From the IMG/VR virus record IMGVR_UViG_3300045988_157167, positions 11,551-75,550 of that record: 64,000 nucleotides of DNA, one strand, 5' to 3'. The number at the start of each line of letters is the position of its first letter. Position 1 is the stretch's first letter. The position numbers were made by a program, and so were the translations under genes. The notes beneath the pieces are model-generated. The model was given only the letters and a program-made list of their open reading frames with translations. It was not told where the DNA came from and did no database searches. Shown here one piece after another: positions 18,137-61,565 of the stretch. Source of the DNA: a virus.

Positions 18137-18156
18137 CAATCGGAACATATTCCTAA
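18137..18156 (-). promoter_or_regulatory. Copy 1 of the 20-bp motif TTAGGAATATGTTCCGATTG, followed by N11-TTGGGA-N8-TATAAT (TATAAT at 18106-18111)
   Basis: Exact motif. The predicted transcription start is ~8 nt upstream of the tRNA-Gln 5' end. Confidence 0.6.
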
Positions 18157-18207
18157 TAAAAAAAGCCAGATTTCTCTGACTTTTAAAATGTATTATTATT
18201 TATTTTC

Positions 18208-18789
18208 TTATTGATATTCTTTCATTCTTCTAATTAGTGTAGCTTTGCTTATTCCTGTTACTTCTGTAACTTGCTTATAACTCATGCCACTTTGCTTTAG
18301 ATCAATGGCATGCTTAATTTGTTTATTTGAATACTTTTGCGGTCTACCTTCCGTAAAATCTTCTCTTTGTCTAGCTATTGCCTTGCCTTCTTTTGTTCTT
18401 TCAACTATCATGTCTCTTTCAAATTCGGCAAATCCAAGGAAGATAGTTCTTATTAGCTTTCCGTTAGGTGTATTATCCATTAAACCTAAGTTTACTATAT
18501 GAACCTTTATATCTTGTTCTAGTAATTTGTCTATTATGCTTAATCCATGTATTGTACTTCTAGCAAATCTGTCTAACTTAGTTACTACTAATGTATCTCC
18601 TGGTTTTAATTGTTTAAGAAGTTTATCAAAATTTTTGCGATCTTCTTGTTTCTTTGTTCCAGTATAAGAATCAACTACTATGTTTTCTTCTAAACACCCA
18701 TTTGCTAATAATATTTCTGTTTGACCTTCTAATGAGTTTCCATCTTTCTTTTGTGAGTAAGTACTAACTCTTGCATATCCATATTTCAT
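18208..18789 (-). CDS. Small serine recombinase (resolvase/invertase family)
   Basis: [13 protein letters not shown] catalytic Ser motif, [12 protein letters not shown], and a C-terminal HTH. Confidence 0.85.
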
Positions 18790-18888
18790 ATTTACAACCC
18801 CCTATGATTATCTTTTATACTTATATTGTATCATAAGTCTTAAAAGTTGTAAACCTATTTATGGACTTTAAATATTTGTTTTTAACAT

Positions 18889-20151
18889 TTAAACATATGC
18901 AAATGTATATCCATGCGTTGTTTTTCCTTTTCCTTGTAATACCCTTTCTATATTTTTTCTTGGGATATTTAGTTTTCTTGCACAAATCCCTATTCCCTCA
19001 ATAATTTCTTCTGAATTATCTTTTAAATTTGTTGCTTTAATAGTTTTCTTAGGAGCAACATTTTTGCTATATTTAGCTTTTACTGCCAATATAGAAGTGT
19101 AATCCTTACTTTCTATATATGGAATTAACTGTTGTTTTACATTTATAGCATCTTCTTCTGTTTTAAAATGGCCTATTGGTATCTGATTTCCATTAAAGGT
19201 TATTCTTAAAAACCAACTTTTCCTTTTAATATCATAATTAACTCCTTTTTCTTTGCTCTTATACATATTTTTATTTCTTATTTTTCTTAGCTTTTTACAT
19301 TGCTCTTGTAATCCTTCTCTTTCACACATTTTTTCAAGTGTATATCTCGAATGTCCAGTAAAATTTTCCATATCTATAAACGTTTCGATACCTTTTTCCA
19401 TTCCTTTTAAAAATTTTTGTTTCATTCGAGTATTTTTCACATCTTTAAAAACTTTACCATAATCTTTTATTTTTTCTTTGTAAAAAATAGTTCTAATGCT
19501 ATTTTCTGCAAGATTATATTTATTACAAAGTTCTTCTAAAGAATAATTATAAGAATATAAATCCTCTATAATTTTTTTATTTCTACACTCTATAAAATTT
19601 AATTGTTTGATTTTTTCATTTAAATCGGATCTCACATCTATCCAAGAGTCAAGATTTTTAATGCTATAAATGATATTTTCTCTAACTCCAGTTAATTTAG
19701 ATATTTTCTTTATAGAGATTGGATTATTTTCTAGTACTGACAACATTTCCTTAACCTTAGCAATTTGATGCTCTGTATAATCACTTCTTTCTCTATTTAC
19801 TTTCTTTAAATTTTCTAATCTTTTCTTTCGTATTTCTTCTGGAATTTCATTTAGAAAATAGTCTCCACCTTCTGTCATATTAAATCCATTATTATAAGTA
19901 TCATATTTTTTTATATAATACTTTTCTAAATCATTTAAAATGTCAAGTTCATCACAATAATATATAGCTTTAAACTTAAAAGCATCTTCTCCATATTTAT
20001 TCCAACTTCTTTGAAGATATTCATTATCATGATTACCTCTATTTAAAGCACTTATATGGCTTTTCCATCTTTTTTCAAAATCTTGGATCGTTTGTCCTAT
20101 ATACATATCACCTGTTACTACATTTGTTATTGAGTAAATTCCAAAATACAT
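18889..20151 (-). CDS. GIY-YIG homing endonuclease with AP2-like DNA-binding domain
   Basis: N-terminus YFGIYSITNVVTGDMYIGQT...R...H..L..G.H.N. C-terminal GVNYDIKRKSWFLRITFNGNQIPIGHFKTEEDA is AP2-type. Confidence 0.8.
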   Translation of the reverse strand: MYFGIYSITNVVTGDMYIGQTIQDFEKRWKSHISALNRGNHDNEYLQRSWNKYGEDAFKFKAIYYCDELDILNDLEKYYIKKYDTYNNGFNMTEGGDYFLNEIPEEIRKKRLENLKKVNRERSDYTEHQIAKVKEMLSVLENNPISIKKISKLTGVRENIIYSIKNLDSWIDVRSDLNEKIKQLNFIECRNKKIIEDLYSYNYSLEELCNKYNLAENSIRTIFYKEKIKDYGKVFKDVKNTRMKQKFLKGMEKGIETFIDMENFTGHSRYTLEKMCEREGLQEQCKKLRKIRNKNMYKSKEKGVNYDIKRKSWFLRITFNGNQIPIGHFKTEEDAINVKQQLIPYIESKDYTSILAVKAKYSKNVAPKKTIKATNLKDNSEEIIEGIGICARKLNIPRKNIERVLQGKGKTTHGYTFAYV

Positions 20152-20190
20152 TCTATCTCACCTCTTAATTATATTATATCACAAACTTAT

Positions 20191-20230
20191 ATCAGTTACA
20201 ATCAGTTGTAATCAGTTGTAATCAGTTGTA
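20191..20230. repeat. Four tandem 10-bp repeats atcagtt(a/g)(c/t)a
   Basis: Units at 20191-20200, 20201-20210, 20211-20220 and 20221-20230. They overlap the -35 of the RHH gene promoter. Confidence 0.8.
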
Positions 20231-20244
20231 ATATATTTTATAAT
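20216..20244 (+). promoter_or_regulatory. Sigma-A-type promoter TTGTAA-N17-TATAAT for the RHH gene
   Basis: Hexamers at 20216-20221 and 20239-20244. Confidence 0.55.
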
Positions 20245-20262
20245 TAACTCGAGGTGATTATT

Positions 20263-20421
20263 TTGGCAAGAAAAGATTTAAAAAACAGAGTTCCAATTGG
20301 TTCCGCTATTGATAAAGAGTTGTATCAATGGCTTAAAGAATATTCTAACCAATCATCTGTTCCAATATCTAAACTTTTAGATAAAGCTATTCAACTTCTT
20401 AAAGAGTCTACTGTTAAGTAG
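20263..20421 (+). CDS. Ribbon-helix-helix (CopG/Arc-like) protein, 52 aa, TTG start
   Basis: Read by eye: (M)ARKDLKNRVPIGSAIDKELYQWLKEYSNQSSVPISKLLDKAIQLLKESTVK. RBS gaggtg lies 6 nt upstream. Below the ORF-track size cutoff. Confidence 0.6.
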   Translation: MARKDLKNRVPIGSAIDKELYQWLKEYSNQSSVPISKLLDKAIQLLKESTVK

Positions 20422-20494
20422 GCTTTTTATTTTTTCTCAAGTTTCCAAAAAATTTTTTGTAGGATTTTTTTTGAGGTTTCATTTTCCCCTCAAG

Positions 20495-20955
20495 TCTCAT
20501 TTTTTGCTGAGCAGTTCTCTGTGGCTTGGCGCACGCGTTGAAAATACTAGGGTATAGAATGCACCGCCCCCTTACCTGGAGTACCCTACCCCACCGAGAG
20601 GCCCTTGTTTTGCCTTGTTACTTATGACACTAAGTTATAAGACAAGTAAACATATTGATATCACTTACTATGTCGAAGTGTATCATAACTTATAAGTATT
20701 GATACCTTATAGAGTACTATTAATGCTGTTGTCTTTTACTATACTGGTCTTACTGTTCACTCTGTTGTCTTATACCTTCTGTGCGCCCTTCTAAGATGTT
20801 ATACTTTGTCTTGCCTGTCCTTATTCTATTGGTAATATATTCCTTCTCTTAATAGTTCTTATAGCTTAATATTATTAAATCAACTATTTAAATAGTTTTT
20901 TAAGGGCAACACCTCGTAAATATGGACCGCGATAAGCGCCCCCCTACATTCCCTC
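20495..20955 (-). ncRNA. Second structured non-coding RNA candidate (~460 nt) immediately downstream of terS
   Basis: No ORFs. G+C-rich blocks at 20521-20604 and 20904-20944. 7-bp stem 20548-20554/20582-20588. 16-bp palindrome 20882-20897. The minus strand is purine-rich. Confidence 0.4.
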
Positions 20956-21423
20956 TTATGATATTTCACTATCTGTTATATCTATTACATTCCCTTCTAT
21001 AACATCTGAATCATTAAAATCATCCCAAGAAGGCTCATTATTATTTTCTTTTTCAGTTTCAGGAGTAATAACTGTTTTAGTTTCCACTTTTGAAATTGGA
21101 GCGCCAGCCAATCTATTAAGTAAGTATATGCTTGCATCTAGTCTAACCTTCTCGCTCTTAGCTGATCTTGATAGGTCGAGAATATTTTGTAAAAGTTGAT
21201 TAGAGAATTTCATTATACGATTGTCAACTTTATTTTTAGCAACTTCATATTGTCTATCAAGTTCTTCCATGAATTCTGGTCTTTTCTTCCAGCGCATTAT
21301 AGTTTTTTCACAAACATCTAATTGGTCTGCTACTTCTTTATTAGTTGCACCATACACTAATAATTCTGCTGCAATTAATTGGTCTTCTGTTAACCTAGAA
21401 TCTTTTTCTCGTGGCATAATCAA
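20956..21423 (-). CDS. terS: Terminase small subunit (HTH, phBC6A51-like)
   Basis: LTEDQLIAAELLVYGATNKEVADQLDVCEKTIMRWKKRPEF helix-turn-helix, with an acidic C-terminus. Confidence 0.6.
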   Translation of the reverse strand: MIMPREKDSRLTEDQLIAAELLVYGATNKEVADQLDVCEKTIMRWKKRPEFMEELDRQYEVAKNKVDNRIMKFSNQLLQNILDLSRSAKSEKVRLDASIYLLNRLAGAPISKVETKTVITPETEKENNNEPSWDDFNDSDVIEGNVIDITDSEIS

Positions 21424-21929
21424 TTACCCTCCTTCCTTTTTATTTCTTCTCTTAAGTGATAATATAAAATTTTATGGACCATTGAAGGTGATTCTTTTCT
21501 ATCACATGCAATAATATGAAGATTATCGAATTTGGCCATTAATGAAATTACCATAGCCGCGCTAGCGTTAGGATGAACATGGCTTATATATTCACCTTTT
21601 AAAAGTTTGATATAATAATCCTTGTCTTGTATAAGCAAGAATAATTTAACTCCTGCTTCTTTTGCTCTTTTTAGTTCCCTTATAAAACGGTTATCTTTAT
21701 TTTCGTCTTTTGCTGGATCCATTAAGTTTCCTAGCAATTCATCTAATCCTGCTTTTCTTTCTATTAAAATATTAGGTATATATTCTCCTTGATATCTAAT
21801 AGCATAATCTCCAGTATCTAATTTTTCTCTACTGGCCTGTATTCCATTTTTTATAAGAGTATCTTGGATTAATGTATCTTGTTCCCTTGTATCGCATATA
21901 ATTTCGTAATCTTCATTTTTTATTTTCAT
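21420..21929 (-). CDS. ERCC4/Mus81-type nuclease
   Basis: DTREQ ... GDY ... ERK..LDEL signature. Confidence 0.7.
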   Translation of the reverse strand: MKIKNEDYEIICDTREQDTLIQDTLIKNGIQASREKLDTGDYAIRYQGEYIPNILIERKAGLDELLGNLMDPAKDENKDNRFIRELKRAKEAGVKLFLLIQDKDYYIKLLKGEYISHVHPNASAAMVISLMAKFDNLHIIACDRKESPSMVHKILYYHLREEIKRKEGN

Positions 21930-22085
21930 ATTATCCCCTTCTATAAGCTAAACATATTGAATTTGCAACATTTATAGAGGTTTATGCCGTAGGCAATTAA
22001 GAGAAATTCTGTTCTGTATATAATATATAACTAACAAACTCTAAAAATAGGTTCTAAATGTTGATATTACTTAATTTGTCCTTCT

Positions 22086-22136
22086 CGTAAAAAGTTTACT
22101 TTTTGCCGTTTTTTCCACGTAAAAAGTTTACTTTTT
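22086..22136. repeat. Two exact 19-bp direct repeats cgtaaaaagtttacttttt, each containing GTAAA-N3-TTTAC
   Basis: Copies at 22086-22104 and 22118-22136. Confidence 0.8.
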
Positions 22137-22154
22137 TATTTTAAAGGCCTAATT

Positions 22155-23090
22155 TTAAGCATTAAAAAAAAGCCATGAAAGAGTTTTTCTATTCTCTTCT
22201 AGGCTATTCCCTCCCCATATTACAGCTGGGTTAATTACATAATAGTCTTTTATTCCGTATCCATTAGCAACCTTCACATAAGAAATAAGATAGTATTTTC
22301 GCCCATCTATTTTTATATAGAATTTTTTTAAACTTTCTCTAAATTTATAAACACTTTGCTTACTAGTTGAAATTCCTAATAATTTGCAAATTTCTTCTGA
22401 ATTTAGTTTTTTAAGCCTTGTAAAATCACTTTCTAATGGATTTCTACATAATATATTAAGTTCAAAATTCATAAACGGAATAAGTTGATATATATAACTA
22501 AGTGTTTTATGTTGTCTAGGTGTGCAATTCTCATAAATGTGTCTAGTTGTTGAAATAAAAACTCTTGTAAAAGATTTGTCATTATCACGTTTACCTTTAC
22601 TAAAATATTTCGGATCTATATAAAATTTATTATTAACCTCATAAATAATATTATTTTCTTTCATTTGGGCCAAGAATAAATCAAATACCGTTACACTTAG
22701 TTTTAGTAGTTTTCTCATTTCTTCTCTAGTCATAGCATGAATAACTTTGCTTTTTCCATATTTTATAAGTAAATTTGCTTGTCTGTCATTATAGTCTAAA
22801 TAAGTAGCTAAATAAATCAATCTGGCTATATTAGGTCTATCTATATTTAAATTATAAAATAACAGTTTACTATTTACATAAAACATATGAACAAAGCCTC
22901 CTTGCTTGTTGCAATACTTCTTTAAATCATTTTTTCTATTAATTAATCTTTTCTGTTTCGGAGTTAATTTTTTAGATTGTTTCTGAATAACTAACTCTTC
23001 ATCATTTTCTATTTTAAAAATATCTAGGAGATCTTCTGTTTCTGAGTTTACTATTAAAACATCTTTCATTTCACATATCTCCTTTTTCAA
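22155..23090 (-). CDS. Hypothetical protein, possibly a winged-helix DNA-binding or replication-type protein
   Basis: ORF track; no firm motif. Confidence 0.45.
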   Translation of the reverse strand: MKKEICEMKDVLIVNSETEDLLDIFKIENDEELVIQKQSKKLTPKQKRLINRKNDLKKYCNKQGGFVHMFYVNSKLLFYNLNIDRPNIARLIYLATYLDYNDRQANLLIKYGKSKVIHAMTREEMRKLLKLSVTVFDLFLAQMKENNIIYEVNNKFYIDPKYFSKGKRDNDKSFTRVFISTTRHIYENCTPRQHKTLSYIYQLIPFMNFELNILCRNPLESDFTRLKKLNSEEICKLLGISTSKQSVYKFRESLKKFYIKIDGRKYYLISYVKVANGYGIKDYYVINPAVIWGGNSLEENRKTLSWLFFNA

Positions 23091-42450: not shown

Positions 42451-43698
42451 TTATATCACACTATCTAACCAATAAATTTTATTATATTTCCAAAGTAATC
42501 TACATTTTCTTACATTGACTTTTTTGCAATGTTTTGTAGGACTTTGAAAATTTAATGCGTTCAAATGTGGATATAATGCTGTAACATATCCTTTATGAGT
42601 TTCTCCATTTCTGTAAGTATATTCAACCAAATCTCTATGTTTAATTCCTAATACATTATCTGTTTTTGCTTTTGATTTTCTACGCATCGGTTTAATCATC
42701 CATTCTTTTATATTGCAAGTATCTGGAAAACAATTTGTTATACAAATAGCATCGTTTGAATGAGATTTTTCTATATTCCATTCAATTCTTTTATTTGCAG
42801 TATCTCCACCTGTTGTAAGATGTAATATTCCTAATTGTTTAATATTTTCTCTAAGATAATTTTTACCTTGCATGACATGCATTGCATAATCAAATCTTTT
42901 TGGCTTACTTTTTATTTTGGTGAAATATCTCTCTTCAAATTCTCGTTCTTTCCCTTCTGTCTTTTGATGACAAGAAGAACAAAGAGTAATGAGATTCCCA
43001 ATAGTATTTGCTCCACCAAATCTCTTTGCTCGAATATGATGAACCTCAAGTACAGTATTTGTTTTTCCACATTCTTGACATTTACAACTATCTCTTAATA
43101 TTGTCGCTTTTCTAAGATTTTCATCTAATCTATTATTCTTCTGATATTGCCAATTATAAGGTTTATATCCATCGGCCATTGCTCTTATATCTATTGCTAC
43201 ATCTTCAAGATAATATTCTTTAATATTTATCCATTTATTTAATTGATATAAAACTCTAAGAATAGAATCTTTCTTTTGTTTAATACTTGGCGCTAATCTA
43301 TTAGTTTTTTTTGAAGATGCTCTATTATTGAATCTAGGTTTACGATATCTTTTATGATATCTACGGTATTGTCTATATCCTCTACGAACATCCATTAAGT
43401 GTTTTACATCTTGTCTTTGTTCAATAGTTCCTTTAAATACAACTTTATTTTTACTTGGACATTTTTGAACAATTGCTATTCCAACATGAGAACTACCATC
43501 GTCAATTCCACAAACCATATGACTTTCATCTTCGTCATCAGGTTCAACTTCTTTTTCTAACTGAATTACCATAGGATATTTACTTTTTAATTTTGCTCGA
43601 CCTTTTCTAATCAAATACCAACCTTTATTTACTTTAGTTGGAGCTAAAGGTCTATTGTTTTTATCTACAACAAAACAATATTCAATTTTATTTTCCAT
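42451..43698 (-). CDS. iscB: IscB RNA-guided nuclease (copy 1)
   Basis: PLMP-type N-terminus ([26 protein letters not shown]), Ruv[16 protein letters not shown], an Arg-rich bridge helix, Ruv[28 protein letters not shown], and Ruv[13 protein letters not shown]. Confidence 0.85.
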
Positions 43699-43973
43699 CT
43701 CTGGACACCTTCCTTTCGGAGAATTTTTCGTCTTGGGAATGTCAAGTAGAGGATATGTGTTTCCCTGTTATCAATACAGGACATTAGCATTGTTTCTTGG
43801 TTAGCACTCACAGAGTTTCAGACTGACGATTACATCTAAAAGTGTGTGTTTACCTTACTACTCAACATAGTTCATATCTGCAATATATGTTTCCATAAAA
43901 GCAGTCACTAACCCTTGAAACCTCTTGTTAAGCCATATACAAAAGACTAATGTGTCCACTTTTCTATATGTTT
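43699..43973 (-). ncRNA. Omega-RNA (HEARO-type) candidate for IscB copy 1
   Basis: ~275 nt ORF-free, G+C-enriched block abutting the iscB start. Contains stems such as cctgt-attgata-acagg. A 9-bp hairpin at 43974-43999 sits at its 5' edge. Confidence 0.65.
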
Positions 43974-49646: not shown

Positions 49647-49877
49647 CTAATTACCTCCTTCGTTGTTTTTCGTTTATATATACATTATATTCCATTTTTT
49701 TACGTTAGTCAACGAATTTTTAAACATTTTTAATTATTATTTCTCGTTTTGCATCGTTGATATTTTTGTTTTATTAACGACTTTTTGTAATTTTCTCGTT
49801 TATTTTTTTCTATTAATATGTTACAATTATTGTATATTAATAAAATAAAAACTTTTAAATATAATTGGAGGCAAGAT

Positions 49878-50264
49878 ATGAATGGTGTAAATGAAAAAGA
49901 TATTGGTAAAAGAATTGAATTTATAAGAAAGAAAGAAAAGCTTTCAAGACGAGAGTTTGGAAAAATAGTAAATAAAAGTGAAGATGCTGTATATAATATT
50001 GAGAAAGCTAGAGCTAAAATAAGTGATGATATTATTTATAGCATATGTAATATTTTCCACATTAATAAAAATTGGCTGCTTAATGGAGAGGATGGTATGT
50101 ATGAAACTAATTCCAAACATATTAGACTTGCAAATATAGTTGGAAATTTAGAAAAAGAAGAAAATCTATTTGAATTAACAGAAATGCTTCTAGATCTAAA
50201 TGATAGACAAATTGAGGTAATTAAAGATTTAATAGATGTGTTTAAAGAATCAGAAAAAAAATAG
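49878..50264 (+). CDS. XRE/cI-like repressor (start moved to the Met at 49878 behind RBS ggagg)
   Basis: IGKRIEFIRKKEKLSRREFGKIVNKSEDAVYNIEKARAK HTH. One of the few plus-strand genes. Confidence 0.7.
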   Translation: MNGVNEKDIGKRIEFIRKKEKLSRREFGKIVNKSEDAVYNIEKARAKISDDIIYSICNIFHINKNWLLNGEDGMYETNSKHIRLANIVGNLEKEENLFELTEMLLDLNDRQIEVIKDLIDVFKESEKK

Positions 50265-50755: not shown

Positions 50756-50832
50756 AAAATTTATTCTAAAATAACTGCTTTTTCTCGTAAATGTAAAATA
50801 TTTGGTTAATATTCCACAAAAACACTAGAAAA

Positions 50833-50862
50833 GAAAAAAAATCCACCTTCCGCAAGATGGAT
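50833..50862 (-). terminator. Rho-independent terminator of mini-cassette 3
   Basis: Stem atccaccttccgcaagatggat plus an 8-T run on the minus strand. Confidence 0.65.
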
Positions 50863-50945
50863 TTTCTTCTAAATAATCATAGGTCATATATAAGATATAG
50901 AAATACTTTTAACAATTTAATTATAACATTCCAATACTTATTTGA

Positions 50946-50965
50946 AAATCGGAACATATTCCTAA
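50946..50965 (-). promoter_or_regulatory. Copy 2 of the 20-bp motif (TTAGGAATATGTTCCGATTT)
   Basis: 19/20 identity to the other copies. TGtTATAAT follows 20 nt downstream on the minus strand. Confidence 0.55.
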
Positions 50966-50971
50966 CTTTTA

Positions 50972-51010
50972 CAAAAAAACAACCGCTCTTGATGAGGGTT
51001 AAGAGCGGTT
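50972..51010 (-). terminator. Rho-independent terminator of mini-cassette 2
   Basis: 10-bp stem aaccgctctt/aagagcggtt plus a T-run on the minus strand. Confidence 0.7.
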
Positions 51011-51133
51011 AGGGAGTATTGTTTCATACCATAAATTCTAATGATAAACAATATACTAGAAATATTTTAGGAATAAAAAAATATAATCTTAGATAACTAT
51101 ATTATTAATGATACTACTGTTTTTTCAAAACTT

Positions 51134-51153
51134 CAATCGGAACATATTCCTAA
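51134..51153 (-). promoter_or_regulatory. Copy 3 of the 20-bp motif
   Basis: Exact TTAGGAATATGTTCCGATTG. Confidence 0.55.
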
Positions 51154-51160
51154 TTAACAA

Positions 51161-51197
51161 TAAAAAATAACTACCTCACAGATGGAAAGGTAGTTAT
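51161..51197 (-). terminator. Rho-independent terminator of mini-cassette 1
   Basis: 10-bp stem ataactacct/aggtagttat plus a T-run on the minus strand. Confidence 0.7.
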
Positions 51198-51285
51198 TCT
51201 TTAAGAAAGGAGTACTTATATTAGTAATATAGCTAAAACTTTAAGTCTTATACAATATAAGATTAACACCTTTCATTTCCAATTA

Positions 51286-51305
51286 CAATCGGAACATATT
51301 CCTAT
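51286..51305 (-). promoter_or_regulatory. Copy 4 of the 20-bp motif (ATAGGAATATGTTCCGATTG); contains the TAG stop of the upstream ORF
   Basis: 19/20 identity. Confidence 0.55.
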
Positions 51306-51619
51306 ATATTTTTATAAGTGAATTTTACAAAAGTTCCGTTTTCAGTTTTAGCCTTAACTCTGGCAACTTCTGTTGTTTCATCTATTTCTAGACTTTTAAT
51401 AGCTTGAAGAACCATATTTGTTGTACAATTTTTAGTTTTAAATTCAATAATATCATCTGTATATTTTACAGTTGCATTTGACATACTAAAATCTACCCCA
51501 CAAATAGTTAATACATATACATTAACTTTTTCTCCTTCAAATGGTTCTAGAAATTTTTTAATTTCCCATTGTTCAAATAATTTTTTAACCTTTTCGAGAA
51601 AGAAGTCCCCTTCTATAAT
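51302..51619 (-). pseudogene. 3' part of a small gene split by the IscB element (ORF track lists only 51302..51484)
   Basis: The reading frame stays open 45 codons upstream of the tracked ATG (..IIEGDFFLEKVKKLFEQWEIKKFLEPFEGEKVNVYVLTICGVDFS-MSNATV..), right into the element's end hairpin. Confidence 0.5.
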
Positions 51620-51645
51620 TTAGCCGTAGGCAAATTTAGGAGGGG
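51607..51645 (-). repeat. Right-end (RE) subterminal hairpin of the IscB element
   Basis: Plus strand reads ccccttctataatttagccgtaggcaaatttaggagggg. Confidence 0.7.
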
Positions 51646-51679: not shown

Positions 51680-53062
51680 TTATATCGCAAAATTACTTTC
51701 GTATTGCCAATTATTATTATGATTTATGAATTTCAAGGCATAAATTGAAACTTGTTTATATTTTTTGCCTGGTATAGTTATATACTCATCATTTATATTT
51801 TTTACATAAGCAGATGATTTGCCAGAAAAACCTGTAATATAACCAATTTGACCAAAGATTTCTACTTTATCATTAAGGTAAAAACCATTTGCAAAACTTG
51901 TATTTTTCTCATTTCTTTTGCTTTCAGTGTTTTTAGTTTTTCTACCTTTTCTAGCTGTCGCTTCATGCAGTGAACGTTTTTTCTTTCTAAACTGCTTTAT
52001 TTTAAAAACTTCATCACAGTTTTGATTTATACATTCAACTTTACTTATTGCAATAGCATCGTTATAATGAGTTTTCTCAAGTCCAAGTTTTTTTCTTCTT
52101 GGTGTTGTTATAGAACCATAAGTTATGTTAGCTTGAGGATATTTTTTAAATACTTTTACCCTCATTGAGTTCATAAACGGTGGTTCTTTATAAGTTTTCA
52201 TCTTTTTCTTTTTTATCATCCATTCATAAAGTATGCCGCCTGGTTTATGATTCTCAGATGTGTGACAATCAGTACAAATTGTAGCTAAGTTGTCAGCTCT
52301 ATCGCTTCCACCTTTACTTTTATAAATTACATGATGTGTATGAAGTACTTTATCTTTACTTTTTTTACAAACCTGGCAAGTGTAATTATCTCTTGCAAAG
52401 ACAAAGTATCTCGTATTATAAAAGCCGAAGGCTTCGCCTTGTTGATAATCAGCACCTTCTATTTCTGGATTTATCATTTTAGCCATATCAAATTTACCTA
52501 CTTCAATACTTAAATTGCATTTTGGAAGTAAATTATAATATTTATCAATCCAGAAAAATGTATTATCTATTTTAGACTGTATGCTTGGCGGCAGCCAACC
52601 AACAGGTCTATTTGAATCTATGTTTGTAGATAGTGTTCTCCAGTTCTTTTTGGAGTCACTACCTTTTTTAAGAGTTTTTAGTTTTGCTCCTTTTGGAGCA
52701 TTAAAAACTCTTTTATTTCTGAAGTTAAATTTACATCTTCTATATCTAGTTTTTCTAGAACGTCTACCTCTTCTTAGAATTTTTTTAGTTTCTATTAAAC
52801 TACTTACATCTTGTCTAAGTTCTATTTCACCTTTTGCTAATACTTTATTTTGGGTAGTTACAGCTATACCAATGTTTTTAGAACCTAAATCGACACCTAA
52901 ATTAGTATTTTGTGTATATCCATAAGAACCGTAAATAAGTTTTATTGTAAATGGTTTATAATTTACTATCTTTGCTTTCTTTTCTTTTATTAATTTTCTA
53001 GCACGTTGAGGCTTACAAGGCATCAACGGCTTATTGTTTTTATTAAGTACGTATACTACCAT
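51680..53062 (-). CDS. iscB: IscB RNA-guided nuclease (copy 2; start moved to MVVYVLNKNNKPLMPC behind RBS ggagg)
   Basis: Literal PLMP motif, RuvC-I GVDLGSKNIGIAV, RuvC-II SIEVGKFD, HNH CQVCKK..HTHHV..N..TIC..CH, and RuvC-III HYNDAIAIS. The tracked 28-codon N-terminal extension overlaps the RNA block. Confidence 0.85.
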   Translation of the reverse strand: MVVYVLNKNNKPLMPCKPQRARKLIKEKKAKIVNYKPFTIKLIYGSYGYTQNTNLGVDLGSKNIGIAVTTQNKVLAKGEIELRQDVSSLIETKKILRRGRRSRKTRYRRCKFNFRNKRVFNAPKGAKLKTLKKGSDSKKNWRTLSTNIDSNRPVGWLPPSIQSKIDNTFFWIDKYYNLLPKCNLSIEVGKFDMAKMINPEIEGADYQQGEAFGFYNTRYFVFARDNYTCQVCKKSKDKVLHTHHVIYKSKGGSDRADNLATICTDCHTSENHKPGGILYEWMIKKKKMKTYKEPPFMNSMRVKVFKKYPQANITYGSITTPRRKKLGLEKTHYNDAIAISKVECINQNCDEVFKIKQFRKKKRSLHEATARKGRKTKNTESKRNEKNTSFANGFYLNDKVEIFGQIGYITGFSGKSSAYVKNINDEYITIPGKKYKQVSIYALKFINHNNNWQYESNFAI

Positions 53063-53403
53063 AAAGTATACCTCCTTCGAGTTATTTGAATCACCGACCA
53101 AAAGTGGTGGGCGACACGAAATTTTCCCTTCGCCAATGTTAAGCATACTTCTTGCACCAAGTTGACTGTTCTTACCTCACAGAACTGTTTACAGAGCCCG
53201 AACAACAAAAGGTGCTAGGGAATCACACCAAGCTGTATTGATACACTTAACGTAGCTTATTCGCTGTGCCAAATCGCACATCCCGACAAGCTAAGGCTAG
53301 ACAATATTAAGGCAAAAGCCTTACCCCCAAATCTAGAGTCATACTGGGGCTTATATTGAAATACAAGCCCCTTCTATAATCTCCGTAGGTGATTTAGGAG
53401 GGG
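53063..53403 (-). ncRNA. Omega-RNA (HEARO-type) candidate for IscB copy 2, including the left-end hairpin
   Basis: ~340 nt, ORF-free and markedly G+C-rich. Stems include ggggctt/aagcccc, aaggc-tttt-gcctt, tgtgc/gcaca, ggcga/tcgcc and cacc/ggtg. Confidence 0.7.
53368..53403 (-). repeat. Left-end (LE) subterminal hairpin of the IscB element
   Basis: Plus strand reads ccccttctataatctccgtaggtgatttaggagggg. Confidence 0.7.
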
Positions 53404-53427
53404 TTATTGACTGTTATTATTTTTCAT
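53404..53427 (-). pseudogene. 5' stub (RBS + ATG + 6 codons, MKNNNSQ-stop) of the gene split by the IscB element
   Basis: RBS gaagggg, then ATG at 53427. The stop lies exactly at the hairpin boundary. Confidence 0.45.
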
Positions 53428-56481: not shown

Positions 56482-56485
56482 ATGT

Positions 56486-56644: not shown

Positions 56645-56742
56645 ATATTCACCTACCTAGAATTGTACTTGAATTAAGTGTAACACTTTTAGGTTAAAAA
56701 ATAAAGGGATAGATTTAATTATTTTTACCTATCCCCTTTGTA

Positions 56743-57036: not shown

Positions 57037-57953
57037 TTTGCAACTCCTAACATGTAAAATGCTTTCGCATTAACTTGAACATCGGAAACTGCTATTGTTT
57101 GAGGATATTTTTGTTTAAAGTATTTATATCCGAATCTTTCTCCGCCTCCAGCTAAAATTATATTACAAGCTGATGCATCAGGGAAAGCTCCTTTAAATTC
57201 GTTTATAACTTCTTCCATAAAGTCATCTAAGTATTCTTCTTTGAATTTATAATCTGTTATATTAAACATTTTCATATCTCCATCAAACACTTTCTTAGTA
57301 TCTTCTAGAGATATTTTACAGTATTTAGTGCTTATATATCTTCTAACTTTCTTATAAAGATCTAAAAGACCAATATCTAAACTTTCACCATCAATAAATT
57401 TCATACTTTCATCAAATATAGCTACATCAGTAGAACCTCCACCAATATCAACTATAAGAGTTCTAACACCTTTTTCACATTGATTGATAACTTTTAGATT
57501 CTTAATACCATAACTTTCTGGTCTAACAATAACTTCTTCTATCAGAATGTTTCTTGTTATTTGGTCTTCACCAACTCCAATTTGTATTTTTTTGAAATTG
57601 TTATCAGTTATAAATTGTTTCAATTGTTTGTGATACTCATTAAACTGACCAGCTGGAATTCCTATAACCAACTTTACTCTATCATGTTCACAAGTCTTTG
57701 CTAAACCATAATATAATAGTTGAAGAAAATTATCTTTTTCAAATTTTAGATGTTCATTTTTAAATAGCCCTTGATTAACTACCCATTTTTCACCATCAAT
57801 TTCAAAAATTTCGTTTTCTCCTAATTCTTTTACATTAGAATATTTTTCAATTCTACTTTCAATTATTAATTCGCTTGTTGTTCCTGTAATATCCCCGGAA
57901 AAAATACTAGTGATGTTTCCGATATCAGCTCCTGCAACACTAAAATTACTCAT
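57021..57953 (-). CDS. parM: ParM-like actin-family partition ATPase (start at MSNFSV behind RBS ggagg)
   Basis: AGADIGN phosphate-1 motif, VDIGGGSTDV phosphate-2 motif, LAGGG adenosine motif. Confidence 0.8.
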   Translation of the reverse strand: MSNFSVAGADIGNITSIFSGDITGTTSELIIESRIEKYSNVKELGENEIFEIDGEKWVVNQGLFKNEHLKFEKDNFLQLLYYGLAKTCEHDRVKLVIGIPAGQFNEYHKQLKQFITDNNFKKIQIGVGEDQITRNILIEEVIVRPESYGIKNLKVINQCEKGVRTLIVDIGGGSTDVAIFDESMKFIDGESLDIGLLDLYKKVRRYISTKYCKISLEDTKKVFDGDMKMFNITDYKFKEEYLDDFMEEVINEFKGAFPDASACNIILAGGGERFGYKYFKQKYPQTIAVSDVQVNAKAFYMLGVAKWKIK

Positions 57954-57970
57954 ATATATAACCTCCATGA

Positions 57971-58073
57971 TTTGTATTTAAATAGTACTCTGTGTACCTT
58001 ATATTATATATTATAAGGTAAAAATGGTAAAAAAGCAACATTAAAATAAAAATATTTGTATTTAAATAGGACT
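57971..58073. promoter_or_regulatory. parC-like centromere/promoter region
   Basis: 19-bp direct repeats tttgtatttaaatag(t/g)act at 57971 and 58055. They flank a 24-bp near-palindrome (57996-58019) and a minus-strand TTGCTT-N17-TATAAT promoter. Confidence 0.55.
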
Positions 58074-58148
58074 TTAAGTACAAATAATAGTTGATTTTTA
58101 TAAAAGAAGGTGTTACACTTTTAGTATAAAGATAAGGAGGTAAGAAAA

Positions 58149-58397
58149 ATGAAAAAAACTTGGTGTATAACAAAATGGTGTAAATCCATTACAGATGATG
58201 GGAAAGATAAATACATAAATAAAGACATTGATAAATCTAACATGCAATACAAATTTAGAATTTTAGATGATGATGGTATAGTTTATGGATATGGAGTTTC
58301 AGAAAAAATAAGCTTTAAACCACTAAACAGATATATGAATTCTTTAGGAGTAACAGAAATCCAGTATAAAAACAATGGTAAATATGAAGTATTATAG
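58149..58397 (+). CDS. Hypothetical protein
   Basis: ORF track; RBS aaggagg. Confidence 0.55.
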   Translation: MKKTWCITKWCKSITDDGKDKYINKDIDKSNMQYKFRILDDDGIVYGYGVSEKISFKPLNRYMNSLGVTEIQYKNNGKYEVL

Positions 58398-58467
58398 TAT
58401 GTTGATAATTTAAAGGTTTTAAGATTTATTCTTAGAGCCTTTTATTTTACAAAAAGAGGGGATATAC

Positions 58468-58926
58468 ATGAATATAGCAATAGAACAAGCAACTTACAAC
58501 GAACGATTTATGTTAAAAGCAACAAATGAAATATCAAAACAATTTGGGTTCAATATTATTCAAGAACGAGCTTTATATGATACATTATACAAATGTACAC
58601 GAAATGTAGAAATGTACTTGATTACAAGTGAGGAGGGAGATTTTTACACATATATAGACTTATATTTAAAATCTAAAAGATTAGAAGGAATTCAAAGTAA
58701 TACTTTACAAAATACAAAATATAAACTAGTAGAATTGAATAATTACATAGGAAAGAAAATTGAAGATATAACAGTAACTGATTTAAAAATGTATATTTTT
58801 CATAAACAAAATGATTGCTTACCGAGTACTGTAAACGGACTAATCACATGCATAAAAGAATTTTTTAAATATTTATATGAAGACGAGTATATAAGTACTA
58901 ATCCAGCTAGGAAATTAAAAAAATGA
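58468..58926 (+). CDS. Tyrosine recombinase (XerC/D-like), N-terminal SAM-like domain; ends at the A7 frameshift site
   Basis: The ..STNPARKLKK C-terminus is typical of the linker before the catalytic domain. Confidence 0.7.
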   Translation: MNIAIEQATYNERFMLKATNEISKQFGFNIIQERALYDTLYKCTRNVEMYLITSEEGDFYTYIDLYLKSKRLEGIQSNTLQNTKYKLVELNNYIGKKIEDITVTDLKMYIFHKQNDCLPSTVNGLITCIKEFFKYLYEDEYISTNPARKLKK

Positions 58927-59474
58927 AGGAAGATAAAAGATTAAAACATTCGCTAAACGAAGTTGTATTTGAACATGTAAGAATGAGTTGTAAAAATTCT
59001 AGAGATAGAGCAATAATAGAATTTCTATATGCTACAGGTTTAAGAGTTTCAGAACTAGTGAATCTTAATAGATCTGATATAGACCCGAATGCAAATAGTT
59101 TAAAAGTAATTGGAAAGGGAAATAAAGAAAGAGTAGTTATATATTCTGATGTAGCAAAGTTTTATTTACAAAATTATTTAAATGAAAGAAAAGACGATAA
59201 TGATGCTTTATTTGTATCAGTTAAAAAACCATATAAAAGACTTACAACTAGAGTTGTGCAAAAGATGTTTGAAAGAATAAAAAAAGATATAGGACTATCA
59301 GGAGATTTTAGCCCTCACGTTTTACGACATACTTTCGCAACTCGTTTAGCTGCTACTGCAGATATTACAACAGTACAAAAGCTTTTGGGCCACACAAACA
59401 TAAATACAACACTCATATATGCTGAAATGAGTGACGATAAAATAGCATATGAATATAAAAAATCAAAATTATAA
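58923..59474 (+). CDS. Tyrosine recombinase catalytic domain (-1 frame relative to 58468..58926)
   Basis: ATGLRVSEL (Arg), HVLRHTFAT (HxxR), GHTNINTTLIYAE (His..Tyr). Confidence 0.75.
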   Translation: MKEDKRLKHSLNEVVFEHVRMSCKNSRDRAIIEFLYATGLRVSELVNLNRSDIDPNANSLKVIGKGNKERVVIYSDVAKFYLQNYLNERKDDNDALFVSVKKPYKRLTTRVVQKMFERIKKDIGLSGDFSPHVLRHTFATRLAATADITTVQKLLGHTNINTTLIYAEMSDDKIAYEYKKSKL

Positions 59475-59495
59475 ATAATTTTATAAAATAAAAAA

Positions 59496-59524
59496 AGCTA
59501 GAGGAGAGTATCCCCTAGCTTTTA
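59496..59524 (+). terminator. Rho-independent terminator (bidirectional context)
   Basis: Stem agctag/ctagct, with an A-run before and a T-run after. Confidence 0.6.
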
Positions 59525-59529
59525 ATATT

Positions 59530-59600
59530 ATCGGTCGCTATCGGTTGCTTATCGGTCGCTATCGGTCGCTATCGGTCGCTATCGGTCGCTATCGGTCGCG
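59530..59600. repeat. Seven tandem 10-bp (one 11-bp) repeats atcggtcgct
   Basis: Unit starts at 59530, 59540, 59551, 59561, 59571, 59581 and 59591. The last unit forms an inverted repeat with tccgat at 59601-59606. Confidence 0.85.
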
Positions 59601-59610
59601 TCCGATAGAA

Positions 59611-60426
59611 TTATTTTTTAAATACTTCTACATATTTTGGGCTGGCAGTGATATATACTCCTGATTTTAATTTATACATATCTGTTCCAGTTCTTTTTAT
59701 AGTTTCTACTACAGTATAAGCTCCACCAGCGGTAACTTTACCTACCACACTGCTTGAATTAAAATCAGCTTTGCTATGTATATTTACATCTTTTAATATT
59801 CTAATGTATTTAGTTTTAGTAGTAGCAGTAGTAGGTATAACTGTGACTTTTCCTTTTCCATTAGTACAATTAATTATATTTGATGTTTTTATCTTACCAG
59901 CTTTTAAATTAGCACAATCTAATTTGAATTGAGTGTATTTTGAAGGATTAAGAACCATATATATTGGGCATAATTTATATGCTCTACCCACCACATCTGT
60001 ATGTCTTATTATATCTTTTTTACAGTCTAATCCTTTTCTGTCGCATAACCATGCACATAAATGAACCATACTTTTATATGTAGCATCTGTGTAATGATTA
60101 TCTTGCCCTGTTGTGGCAACTTCTATACCTATAGCATATCTATTAGCTGAGTTTGTGCAATAGCATCTTTCATCAGTTGGAATAAGTTGATAAATAGTTC
60201 CGTCTAGATCAATAACAAAATGTGCTGATGCATATACATATTTACCATTAACTTTTGTTCCATTTGCAACTACATTGTTAAAATAGTTAACTGTAGCAGA
60301 ACCTTTAACATCTGCTTCACCAGTATAGTGAATTGCTACTTTTGTATAATTTAATGGAGTTCCAGGTCTACCATATTTGTTTTTCTTTTGCCATTTTTCA
60401 ACGATTGTTGGTTTTACTATTGACAT
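59611..60426 (-). CDS. Endolysin: N-acetylmuramoyl-L-alanine amidase (Amidase_2) with SH3b-like C-terminal domain
   Basis: AIHYTGE ... AHFVIDLDG ... IGIEV motifs, next to the holin. Confidence 0.8.
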   Translation of the reverse strand: MSIVKPTIVEKWQKKNKYGRPGTPLNYTKVAIHYTGEADVKGSATVNYFNNVVANGTKVNGKYVYASAHFVIDLDGTIYQLIPTDERCYCTNSANRYAIGIEVATTGQDNHYTDATYKSMVHLCAWLCDRKGLDCKKDIIRHTDVVGRAYKLCPIYMVLNPSKYTQFKLDCANLKAGKIKTSNIINCTNGKGKVTVIPTTATTKTKYIRILKDVNIHSKADFNSSSVVGKVTAGGAYTVVETIKRTGTDMYKLKSGVYITASPKYVEVFKK

Positions 60427-60437
60427 TATATCATCTC

Positions 60438-60698
60438 CTATTTATTTTCAATTAAAGCTTTGAAACTTTGGTGCAATCCTACACTAGAAAGCCCACTTAA
60501 AAGCCCTCCTAAGAAAATATTCATATCAAATGATTTAGATATTGCTATGTTTAATACAACACCTAATACAGCCATTATGAAAGGAATATACTTATTAGGA
60601 ATAAAATCAAAGCTAGTTTTTATAACATATCCTATTCCACAACAACCTAATACAACTCCAATGACTAAATAACTATTAATAACATTTAAATCTATCAT
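60438..60698 (-). CDS. Holin
   Basis: 86 aa with hydrophobic helices, immediately upstream of the endolysin. Confidence 0.7.
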   Translation of the reverse strand: MIDLNVINSYLVIGVVLGCCGIGYVIKTSFDFIPNKYIPFIMAVLGVVLNIAISKSFDMNIFLGGLLSGLSSVGLHQSFKALIENK

Positions 60699-60708
60699 AA
60701 TTAACCTC

Positions 60709-60942
60709 CTATTCTTCTAAGTGATCTATTCTGTGATGTGCAGACTTTGTTGAATCTTCTACTTTTGCCATTCTTTCTACTAAATTATTATGTTTATCTA
60801 CTCTAGTTGACAAAATATTTATCTCTTCTTTTAAACTTTTTATTTGTTCTTGCATTACTGCAGTAGTTTTACTATTTGCAAAATAAGAACCAGCTAAAGT
60901 CCCTATAAATGCTATAATAGCAACAATTATTTCTGTTTGCAT
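60709..60942 (-). CDS. XhlA-like membrane/coiled-coil lysis accessory protein (start at MQTEI)
   Basis: N-terminal TM helix then a coiled coil (MQEQIKSLKEEINILSTRVDKHNNLVERM). Confidence 0.55.
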   Translation of the reverse strand: MQTEIIVAIIAFIGTLAGSYFANSKTTAVMQEQIKSLKEEINILSTRVDKHNNLVERMAKVEDSTKSAHHRIDHLEE

Positions 60943-60962
60943 ATTAATACCTCTCAATTTTC

Positions 60963-61232
60963 TTAAGTATGTTTTACTCTATCTCTAAGTTCTCCTTTTT
61001 TACCATCGTTAAATTGTCGAACTTCACTTAAATAACCTGTAATTCTTCTGATTCTTTCAAATGAAACAGGAACAAGTTTATATTCTAAATCTACATACCC
61101 TTTATCGTCTATTGTTATATTTAAATAATCAATTTCTCGATTTGGATATTTTTTATGAATATGTTTTATGTAAGCTTCGATTTCTCTTTGTTCAGCATGA
61201 ACTCCTTCTGGAGTTTTTATATTTATTTTCAT
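60963..61232 (-). CDS. Small protein carrying an NrdD-type C-terminal glycyl-radical motif
   Basis: C-terminus RIRRITGYLSEVRQFNDGKKGELRDRVKH matches the R-x-x-G-Y...N-x-G-K..E...R..H tail of anaerobic ribonucleotide reductases. Confidence 0.5.
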   Translation of the reverse strand: MKINIKTPEGVHAEQREIEAYIKHIHKKYPNREIDYLNITIDDKGYVDLEYKLVPVSFERIRRITGYLSEVRQFNDGKKGELRDRVKHT

Positions 61233-61545
61233 CTTTTCAAACTCCTTTTTACAAAATAAAAGGGATTACAAATTAGTAACCCCCTTAGAAAAAATGGTAA
61301 GTGCCTCTAAATACTATATACACATATAACTTTTAAAATTAAAATTCGATTAAAATATAAATGTTTTTTTATTAAGTCCACATTGGAATCACCCTCTTTC
61401 ATAGCCAATAAGCAAAAGAAGGACCCACTCTAAAAGTAAGTCCTTTCCGGAAAAGGTTATTAAACCGATTCCTTTGCTCGTTGGGGTTTCAAATGAGAAA
61501 TTATTTTATCTACAATTATAGTGTAAATTCCCAATAACAAATTTG
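61233..61545 (-). promoter_or_regulatory. Late-type promoter plus a ~280-nt structured leader upstream of the lysis operon
   Basis: TTGGGA-N8-TATAAT at 61515-61534. G+C-rich nested stems at 61380-61490 (ccttttccggaaagg; aaggac..gtcctt followed by cttttgc). Confidence 0.45.
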
Positions 61546-61565
61546 CAATCGGAACATATTCCTAA
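61546..61565 (-). promoter_or_regulatory. Copy 5 of the 20-bp motif; contains the TAG stop of the FtsK-like gene
   Basis: Exact TTAGGAATATGTTCCGATTG, followed by N11-TTGGGA-N8-TATAAT as at copy 1. Confidence 0.6.

Follow-up and report, generated by a model that had tools for sequence, protein, structure and literature searches.

A conserved dyad box at the 5' edge of predicted sigmaA-type promoters for GOLLD, small RNAs and lysis genes in a probable gut phage-plasmid

The stretch of viral DNA studied here (IMG/VR virus record IMGVR_UViG_3300045988_157167, positions 11,551 to 75,550; 64,000 nt, referred to below as the window) contains five co-oriented copies of a 20-bp motif, TTAGGAATATGTTCCGATTG. 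The motif, and in particular the 18-mer TAGGAATATGTTCCGATT within it (the box), is most plausibly a regulatory element of one class of sigmaA-type promoters, bound by a dimeric helix-turn-helix (HTH) protein of the phage; we give this reading a probability of about 0.6. The promoters concerned lie in front of the giant RNA GOLLD, three small RNAs and the lysis genes, and most likely these outputs are co-controlled by a phage regulator. A recount returned the five copies, all on the minus strand, at the same positions and with the same mismatches as a first-pass annotation of the window had given: three are exact and two carry a change in a terminal base. With up to three mismatches permitted, five matches are obtained where 0.01 would be expected, and five were reached in 0/100 shuffles. 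Relaxed searches of the window with a 12-bp core or the 3' half yielded no degenerate extra copies.

The box contains a 16-bp quasi-palindrome, TAGGAATA followed across the centre by TGTTCCGA, in which 6/8 positions are paired (7/8 in a TCGG variant of the dyad) and which is predicted to extend from -51 to -36 with its centre at -43.5. This register is counted from a predicted -10 element placed at -12 to -7, on which count the 18-mer covers -51 to -34. The 3' TT(G) of the box provides the first bases of a sigmaA-type -35 element, followed by a 17-nt spacer and by a -10 hexamer of the form TAnnnT 21 nt after ...GATT. We compared 22 distinct promoter variants drawn from IMG/VR, metagenome and genome contigs (about 40 related contigs), and TAnnnT stands exactly 21 nt after ...GATT in 20 of them; the two off-register variants are a 1-nt deletion, which leaves a 16-nt spacer, and a junction variant with TATAAG. 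Chance matches to the 16-mer core in unrelated contigs served as a control: 2/82 show TAnnnT at the offset, the background being 0.027 per position. The -10 hexamers observed are TAGAAT, TACACT, TAAAAT, TATAAT, TAATCT and TATCAT. The -35 hexamers found with the 17-nt spacer are TTGAAA, TTGCAA, TTGTAA, TTGTCA and TTGAAG, with TTGnAA in most cases. Where the motif ends in T instead of G a weak -35 results (TTTATA, TTTTCA or TTTAAA), and every such TTTnnn variant is paired with a TGn extended -10 together with TATAAT, TAGAAT or TATAAG. The pairing includes three lineages with unrelated spacers (G, H and the genome contig L083). Since a weak -35 is always offset by TGn, the pattern carries the signature of the housekeeping sigma factor, sigmaA. 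Moreover, as the -35 is weak in these three lineages, it does not explain the fixed distance from box to -10 there.

The string motif-N11-TTGGGA-N8-TATAAT, to which the first-pass annotation had drawn attention, can be read letter for letter at copies 1 and 5 (TATAAT at 18111-18106 and 61520-61515). As a -10 element, however, this TATAAT lies 5 nt too far downstream (26 instead of 21 nt after ...GATT); it overlaps the shared -10 by one base, and other promoter classes have TTAAAT, TTTAAG or TTAATA in its place. TTGGGA was considered as a promoter element and rejected, being confined to one spacer lineage (the A, D, H and satellite promoters) and missing from classes B/E/F, C and G, from L174 and from L083; common descent would explain its sharing better than function. 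The statement that the promoters have no good -35 hexamer was wrong, for all five copies supply the TT(G) of a -35-like hexamer 17 nt from TAnnnT. What stands of the earlier proposal is that the motif is an element of one dedicated promoter class and not a chance repeat. The class is not -35-less, and it does not look like the dedicated-sigma type that had been suggested: its -10 varies as TAnnnT with TGn compensation, and a sigmaA-like -35 is present.

Outside the window the 18-mer occurs at 74 loci in about 35 IMG/VR contigs of 38-78 kb, which are mosaic relatives of the window (77-99% identity across 5-100% of each locus). Most of these contigs hold 2-5 copies, in one orientation per contig that matches the direction of transcription; one IMG/VR match (L033), which sits within an open reading frame (ORF), was set aside as chance. 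All the syntenic relatives found retain the box, and it stands upstream of this tRNA-Gln in 27/27 viral contigs carrying the tRNA. A scan of genomes with the 18-mer gave nine matches: seven chance ones in unrelated taxa, one in a fragment of a gut metagenome-assembled genome from the same phage group, and one in Intestinibacter bartlettii N19. About 17 chance matches are expected in 596 Gb, and TAnnnT at the fixed offset is seen in 0/7 of the chance matches. A metagenome scan with the 16-mer core returned human-gut contigs plus many chance matches, the latter forming the control described above.

The information profile of the aligned promoters shows a sharp block from -51 to -34, and conservation is lost abruptly upstream of -52. 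Rescanning the loci then in hand with up to four mismatches revealed one internal variant only, an A-to-C change at the seventh position from the centre, which raises the dyad symmetry to 7/8 pairs. Orthologous neighbourhoods that are 77-90% identical keep the box without substitution; the lysis-promoter forms D1 and D2 show many differences in spacer and -10 and zero at box positions; and the small-RNA units have diverged enough for compensatory changes to be seen in their terminator stems. That the box is unchanged amid flanks diverged by 15-40% therefore points to a sequence-specific constraint on the box itself. The box usually begins a few nucleotides after the upstream terminator, and the constraint thus appears to act on DNA and not on a transcript. 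Upstream flanks vary between contigs with the same downstream unit and switch abruptly at the box edge, which, with the lack of conservation upstream of the box, indicates that the functional unit begins at the box. A hybrid promoter, with an H promoter fused to a D leader, is found in contig L039. It had been noted earlier that the motif marks gene-cassette boundaries and that two copies contain the TAG stop codon of the upstream gene. Both observations are correct (the genes are a 60-aa ORF, 51484..51302, at copy 4 and an FtsK-like ORF, 62566..61562, at copy 5), and the former follows more naturally if the box forms the 5' edge of promoter cassettes that are portable.

The boxes, their core promoters, the transcription units behind them and the two leading candidate binding proteins are collected in Table 1.

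Table 1 Box copies, predicted promoter elements, transcription units and candidate regulators in the window
Feature	Position	Strand	Remarks
Box copy 1	18137..18156	-	exact 20-mer; dyad at predicted -51..-36; 3' TTG opens -35
Box copy 2	50946..50965	-	1 mismatch, last base; ends ...GATTT
Box copy 3	51134..51153	-	exact
Box copy 4	51286..51305	-	1 mismatch, first base; ATAGG...
Box copy 5	61546..61565	-	exact
Copy 1 core promoter	18111..18139	-	-35 TTGAAA 18139-18134, 17 nt, -10 TAGAAT 18116-18111; predicted start ~18104
Copy 2 hexamers	TTTTCA 50948-50943; TGtTATAAT with -10 at 50925-50920	-	17 nt apart, extended -10
Copy 3 hexamers	TTGAAG 51136-51131; TATCAT 51113-51108	-	17 nt apart
Copy 4 hexamers	TTGTAA 51288-51283; TGtTAATCT with -10 at 51265-51260	-	17 nt apart
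Copy 5 hexamers	TTGCAA 61548-61543; TACACT 61525-61520	-	17 nt apart
Resolvase-gene intrinsic terminator	18161..18184	-	ends 4 nt before box copy 1
tRNA-Gln(UUG)	18018..18091	-	first product of copy-1 unit
GOLLD conserved 3' core	17157..17615	-	Rfam RF02032, 187 bits (gathering 150), E=4.7e-51
tRNA-Arg(ACG)	17066..17143	-	directly after GOLLD
Terminator-like hairpin and T-run	16767..16797	-	between RNA unit (with 84-aa ORF) and terL 16733..14982
Copy-4 promoter and small RNA 1 (~90 nt)	51160..51288; RNA 51160-51253	-	fold z=-3.55
Copy-3 promoter and small RNA 2 (~128 nt)	50968..51136; RNA 50968-51101	-	ACUCCCU before terminator; z=-3.70
Copy-2 promoter and small RNA 3 (~85 nt)	50826..50948; RNA 50826-50913	-	terminator 50869-50834; z -2.7
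Copy-5 promoter and leader (~280 nt)	61233..61548	-	two terminator-like hairpins, 61445-61419 and 61286-61259
Lysis cassette	59611..61232	-	89-aa ORF, 82-aa ORF, holin 60698..60438, amidase endolysin 60426..59611
XRE/Cro-type HTH protein, 66 aa	50555..50755	-	Pfam HTH_26/HTH_3; just downstream of three boxed units
RinA/ArpU-like regulator, 157 aa	38550..39023	-	sigma region 4; second-rank binder candidate

Copy 1 had been proposed to head the RNA/terL/structural operon, and it is indeed the only promoter candidate between the resolvase terminator and the tRNA/GOLLD/terL block. As had been stated, 52 bp separate the copy from the end of the upstream resolvase gene (Pfam Resolvase, 1e-35), whose predicted terminator would insulate the copy-1 unit from upstream transcription. 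The tRNA-Gln, which starts at 18091, does lie just 3' of the copy; transcription is still predicted to begin just upstream of it, but with the register revised the start moves from ~8 to ~13 nt before the tRNA (near 18104). The unit runs tRNA-Gln, GOLLD, tRNA-Arg and an 84-aa ORF, and the variable 5' part of GOLLD probably fills 17616-18017 (about 400 nt). The gene terS (21423..20956) lies upstream of copy 1. The boxes do precede the terL block and the lysis cassette, but to describe them as late-operon promoters is too simple, since the RNAs behind copies 2, 3 and 4 are short, terminated and non-coding, and terS is upstream of copy 1.

Those three copies form tandem promoter-RNA-terminator units, of which relatives (L009, L011, L024) have two, partly of other families. 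Strong intrinsic terminators end the short units 84-134 nt from the predicted start. In small RNA 1 the sequence ACUCCUUUCU is single-stranded in the minimum-free-energy fold and precedes a 17-bp terminator hairpin. One of ACUCCU(UUCU), AUCCCU or ACUCCCU is located just 5' of the terminator in units 1 and 2 and in the unrelated unit G of a second phage subgroup. ACUCCU(UUCU) appears to resemble the anti-Shine-Dalgarno 3' end of 16S rRNA, and these RNAs may target ribosome-binding sites. An Rfam scan gave no match for the three units. That copy 5 precedes a lysis cassette with holin and amidase was confirmed by domain annotation; the cassette ends at a terminator (59523-59493), and the first 104 nt of its leader fold with z=-3.41. 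We note that the first ORF of the cassette (89 aa, 60963-61232, minus strand) matches only the C-terminal glycyl-radical end of NrdD (NCBIfam, 6.5e-09) and may be a 'spare part' radical domain.

The box is also found outside the phage. A 9.5-kb element recurs in human-gut metagenomes as three independent assemblies (L039, L144, L174) and one fragment (L105:1-1200). The contig ends of L039 (9564 bp) overlap inside the capsid gene, and the element is therefore circular. It encodes a primase-helicase, a CopG-like protein, an HNH protein, a Cro-like XRE protein, a second XRE protein, a scaffold and a major head protein. L039 and L144 each contain two boxes about 195 nt apart, and the incomplete L174 contains a single one, which corresponds to the second box of L039. 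The first satellite box leads to a terminated RNA of ~130 nt and the second to an XRE-scaffold-capsid module. Its sequence similarity to the window is otherwise about 1%. The element looks like a capsid-encoding satellite or a mini phage-plasmid. A cassette of the window with the 60-aa ORF (51303-51586) is also present in L144 and L174 at 94-97% identity.

The single box of Intestinibacter bartlettii N19 (NZ_JAHLOQ010000024.1; L083:5668-7281), a strain that is the sole lead to a host, is followed by TGtTAGAAT at the 21-nt offset. It lies 65 nt upstream of a 505-aa ORF which gives an end-to-end PADLOC match to Stk2 (E=2.4e-189). A phage protein activates Stk2, a kinase of abortive infection (PMC6532042). 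Within the 8 kb examined here, neither an XRE gene nor a sigma-like one was seen. In L039, L144 and L083 one box promoter leads straight to a protein gene, with no terminator detected. Because the identical box occurs in the satellite-like element and before Stk2, the regulator would act there in trans.

Among the proteins of the window, the 66-aa XRE protein is most likely the binder of the box, judging from genomic context and helix conservation. Its gene adjoins the box cluster in 24/24 viral contigs recovered with the gene, contigs with only A and D boxes having been left out of the count, and a homologue is also present in the satellite-like L039 and L144 and in the fragment L105. The helix SKST[LI][FYS]R[LI]EN is kept at 58-100% identity. 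In more distant homologues (32-59% identity) the recognition helix is a different one, and the flanks examined, of up to 4 kb, lack the box. The XRE gene has a promoter of its own, TTTACG-17-TAGAAT (50756-50797, minus strand, read from the sequence), which ends 7 nt before the ATG, a spacing that suggests a leaderless mRNA.

The 157-aa sigma-like ORF, nominated earlier as a binder, is a weak candidate. It matches sigma70 region 4 in Pfam (9e-09), and region 4 is all that is found by Pfam, NCBIfam and PDB profile search; against the RinA model it scores 21.4 bits (cutoff 31.9). An exhaustive HMMER search recovered 45 small relatives. Among 25 aligned relatives and the window protein, 14/26 match RinA, 8/26 ArpU and 25/26 the C-terminal half of sigma70-ECF, and the RinA and ArpU matches place the protein in the Ltr superfamily of late packaging/lysis activators. 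A single-sequence AlphaFold model has a mean pLDDT of 61 and is confident only in the C-terminal HTH. The phages with boxes fall into two subgroups, and the sigma-like allele of subgroup 2 (L258-L266) is only 51% identical to that of the window, divergence peaking in the recognition helix (TIANVHYIKKK vs SVAKISYMRKD). The adjacent gene (NdpA-like) retains 80-83% identity from one subgroup to the other, and the box occupies the same four sites in both, without change. It was through this neighbour that the 51% allele was reached, a word-indexed database search having given only homologues at least 86% identical and further searches having contributed nothing. Alleles with different helices thus accompany an identical box, and their fast divergence suggests that the real DNA target differs between the subgroups.

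A second regulator of the window serves as a calibration. The 311-aa ORF at 23090..22155 is phrog_9501, and between it and the nuclease-terS operon lie two 17-bp direct repeats, AAAGTAAACTTTTTACG, 32 bp apart (22086-22134, minus strand). Contigs with a 66%-identical allele of the ORF (L071, L059) have an unrelated repeat pair, AAAAACC(C/T)A(G/A)CTCGAACCGA, in front of the same downstream promoter. The ORF and its repeats look like a putative regulator/site pair of Ltr layout for terS. Since allele and repeat covary here, the sigma-like protein is unlikely to be the reader of an invariant box. The CI-like repressor (49818-50264, plus strand) was rejected as a binder, being 100, 75 or 33% identical among contigs with an identical box. 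The early promoter region facing its gene has AACGAgAAA-type repeats and a box-less TTGACT-17-TATAAT promoter. The consensus of the LexA (Cheo) box is GAAC-N4-GTTC; only the right half of the motif (ATGTTC) fits it, and LexA was rejected on reading the sequence.

We propose that the box and the core promoter form a portable cassette, with the box at its 5' edge, and that a phage-encoded dimeric HTH protein would bind the dyad and switch all box promoters together. The favoured sign is activation, in which the protein would touch RNA polymerase from its place next to the -35; on our analysis this would be somewhat more likely than repression, the chief alternative. The site adjoins the -35 without covering it and is strictly phased, even in promoters with an extended -10. 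Lambda cI at OR2/PRM, the C-proteins of restriction-modification systems and Mor/C of phage Mu contact polymerase from about -43. Like the box, the sites of these proteins are dyads of ~16-17 bp at ~-42 to -43.5 that touch the -35 of a housekeeping-sigma promoter and are bound by small HTH dimers; cI and the C-proteins are of the XRE family, to which the favoured candidate here also belongs. Their promoters usually have a poor -35, whereas box promoters mostly have TTGnAA. The box further differs from them in being invariant over 18 bp, in occurring at 4-5 promoters per genome and in a mostly non-coding RNA output.

Several points weigh against the proposal. Near-consensus cores (TTGAAA-17-TAGAAT, TTGTCA-17-TATAAT) are unusual for activator dependence and fit a repressor at least as well, and the place of the XRE gene, downstream of three boxed promoters, is typical of a repressor that regulates itself. 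For a transcription-factor site, full invariance over 18 bp is more than one would expect, and may come from several overlapping constraints or from gene conversion. The co-occurrence of XRE gene and box could come from linkage and not from function, and contigs with only A and D boxes did not enter it. Both the transcription starts and the -43.5 position are predictions from hexamers. The spacers represent only about 6 independent lineages, so that the effective sample is smaller than 22, and the related contigs, if mosaic, are fairly close relatives.

We think it unlikely, on balance, that the box is the operator of a repressor. On that model a small phage repressor, such as the 66-aa XRE protein, silences strong sigmaA promoters in the plasmid-prophage state; its targets would be the GOLLD unit, the small RNAs, the lysis cassette and the satellite capsid genes, and read-through from the three boxed units upstream of the XRE gene would provide autoregulation. 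The near-consensus core promoters are as this model would have them, the XRE/Cro-type protein is HTH-only and encoded just downstream of three boxed promoters, and lysis genes behind a good promoter must stay off in lysogens. Many dispersed, asymmetric C1 operators are known from the phage-plasmid P1. The dyad, at -51 to -36, merely touches the -35, however, and a protein at the nearly identical OR2 position of lambda activates and does not occlude. Occlusion operators are normally found in variable registers over -35, spacer or -10, whereas the register is fixed here, and an immunity-type CI-like protein is excluded by its 33-100% identity beside an invariant box. The many near-identical sites of P1 C1 and the stoperators of mycobacteriophage L5 are likewise dispersed in one orientation over a temperate genome. 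They bind the immunity repressor and take variable positions, including ones inside transcription units, in contrast to the fixed register of box and -10, and the immunity-type CI-like protein of the window varies independently of the box.

It is improbable that the 157-aa protein, as a dedicated phage sigma factor or an activator of the RinA/ArpU/LtrA type, reads the box and drives late transcription. Its sigma70 region 4, the RinA/ArpU matches of its relatives and the position of the box before the terL block and the lysis cassette would suit such a role, and the satellites, which lack such a gene, would depend on a helper. The superfamily switches on packaging and lysis operons and is made from an early transcript (PMC3753634). 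Against this, the -10 is sigmaA-like with TGn compensation, region 4 alone is detectable, boxes are identical at the same sites beside a 51%-identical allele with a different recognition helix, and the 66%-identical allele pair of the 311-aa protein in the same genomes has entirely different repeats. The sites of the Ltr superfamily (RinA, ArpU, LtrA-C) are 2-4 direct 7-nt repeats just distal to ltr and upstream of terS (PMC3753634), and both features are lacking here. What the two systems share is an early-operon protein with a sigma-region-4-like C-terminus, promoters before packaging/structural and lysis modules, and a regulatory site and core promoter that are modular. They differ in that the box is a single quasi-palindrome at five places, none of them upstream of terS; the sigma-like regulator gene is ~17 kb from terS, with the next gene overlapping its stop codon; and its alleles diverge while the box is constant. 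The Ltr layout is better fitted by the 311-aa ORF and its allele-specific 17-20-bp direct repeats upstream of the nuclease-terS operon.

A loading site for an antiterminator of the lambda Q kind is highly improbable. Short RNAs would then be made constitutively, and a factor bound at the box would permit read-through into terL, the lysis genes or the XRE gene. Most box promoters are indeed followed by an intrinsic terminator (at 84-134 nt in the short units), the tRNA/GOLLD unit is closed by a terminator immediately ahead of terL, two terminator-like hairpins stand in the lysis leader and the core promoters look self-sufficient. The terminated RNAs nevertheless look like products (tRNAs, GOLLD, small RNAs with an ACUCCU seed and compensatory stem changes), no Q-like protein was recognised among the regulators scanned, and L039, L144 and L083 each have a box promoter that runs directly into a protein gene with no terminator detected.

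We give very little credence to the idea, raised by the first-pass annotation as an alternative, that the box is a recombination site, either a crossover for the adjacent serine recombinase or a hot spot for deletions and cassette exchange. It would account for the 52 bp between copy 1 and the resolvase gene and for the abrupt change of upstream flank at the box edge, with hybrid promoters as in L039, and a RecT-like annealing protein is encoded. Sites of small serine recombinases are dyads of ~26-30 bp with accessory sites; the dyad here, at only 16 bp, is too short. Direct repeats 10-43 kb apart would delete essential genes, 4/5 copies are far from the recombinase gene, and the main ORFs of L039, a close relative of L144 and L174, included no serine recombinase that could be detected. 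In the C. difficile phage-plasmid phiSemix9P1, too, a Hin-like gene lies upstream of terL, but such a repeat is absent. Strict phasing with the -10 would be left unexplained, and mosaic junctions at the box edge are expected anyway, because the selected 18-mer is identical and RecT is encoded. In this respect the box promoters recall the PeSL elements of T4-type phages, which are likewise repeated promoters at the edges of exchangeable cassettes with hybrid or alternative flanks. PeSLs, however, are early promoters with stem-loops in lytic T4-like phages.

Promoter boxes for phage regulators are already known in kind. New here are an invariant 16-18-bp dyad that is fused to the -35 and dispersed over 4-5 promoters, a mostly non-coding RNA output that includes GOLLD, and the presence of the same box in a satellite-like element and before a host Stk2 gene. 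The giant phage RNA GOLLD forms a 14-mer nanocage, and its expression is up at lysis (PMC12286853). No such motif is described in the papers found on GOLLD and promoters, and a literature search with the core sequence gave a single, unrelated paper. The GOLLD promoter would here be defined at the sequence level, as a putative member of a small regulon with the lysis cassette and the small RNAs. The timing of GOLLD and its co-expression partners become directly testable, with a single operator and one or two candidate proteins. We tentatively suggest that the box may be a shared trans signal, which links the GOLLD phage-plasmid, the capsid-encoding satellite and the host Stk2 gene to one regulator. 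The 9.5-kb satellite-like plasmid would then listen in and time its own capsid genes, and the regulon would be largely an RNA output aimed at translation, with a first regulatory handle on GOLLD. If true, this would be a compact case in which one transcriptional signal serves helper, parasite and host defence alike. Even should the box prove to be an ordinary operator, a promoter class has been cleanly annotated for an uncultured lineage of gut phage-plasmids.

The window has a G+C content of 28.5%, and nearly all its genes are on the minus strand. It combines phage genes (terminase small and large subunits, portal, major head protein, holin, amidase, RecT) with genes of plasmid type (a ParM-like partition ATPase, Rep/DnaD-like initiators, Replic_Relax, an FtsK-like ATPase and a tyrosine recombinase), and is therefore most likely a phage-plasmid, of an uncultured gut lineage. 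At the nucleotide level the window had no match among INPHARED phages, in near or distant mode, or among PLSDB plasmids. Its TerL shares 45% identity with the protein of C. perfringens phage vB_CpeS-1181 and 38% with that of phiSemix9P1, and phages of C. perfringens and C. difficile are thus the apparent nearest isolates by terL. In phiSemix9P1, which among isolated phage-plasmids is the nearest, a check for a comparable dispersed repeat turned up nothing but iterons and a CRISPR array.

Besides the GOLLD core, which is complete, the Rfam RNAs of the window are a HEARO/omega RNA and a group II intron. The HEARO/omega RNA (80.2 bits, slightly below the gathering score of 83) precedes an ORF of IscB type (RRXRR and HNH, 488 aa; 51680-53411, minus strand), and a weak HEARO match (31 bits) precedes a 415-aa ORF (42451-43956, minus strand); the two loci are OMEGA-type elements within the phage-plasmid. 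Group II intron domains lie at the 3' end of the structural region (3138-3233 and 3582-3752, minus strand), D5/D6 scoring 64 bits and D1-D4 31.8 bits. A repeat of the form TTGCCTACGGC(A/T)(A/T)AA...TATAGAAGGGGA occurs at 21982-21996 and 51619-51633 (minus strand), before the nuclease gene and after the IscB ORF. Related sequence is joined to the -10 of an H-type box promoter (at TATAA/G) in L067 (108 region), L195 and L221, and this type of element may be the end of an insertion sequence or an insertion junction. The 800-bp gap between terS and a GIY-YIG endonuclease gene (20152-20955) holds four tandem 10-bp TACAACTGAT repeats (~20190-20231), a small plus-strand ORF that by eye is ribbon-helix-helix-like (~20274-20430) and a G+C-rich stretch (20440-20950). 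As a structured RNA the region 20440-20960 was unconvincing (z=-1.9) and without an Rfam match. Two overlapping ORFs, of 152 and 183 aa, make up the tyrosine recombinase (58468-59474, plus strand); the split may reflect a frameshift or a fault of assembly. Near-identical terminator hairpins, AGAG(C/T)AGTTATTAATT..GCTGCTCT, are located at two distant sites, 63388-63413 and 16767-16797 (minus strand).

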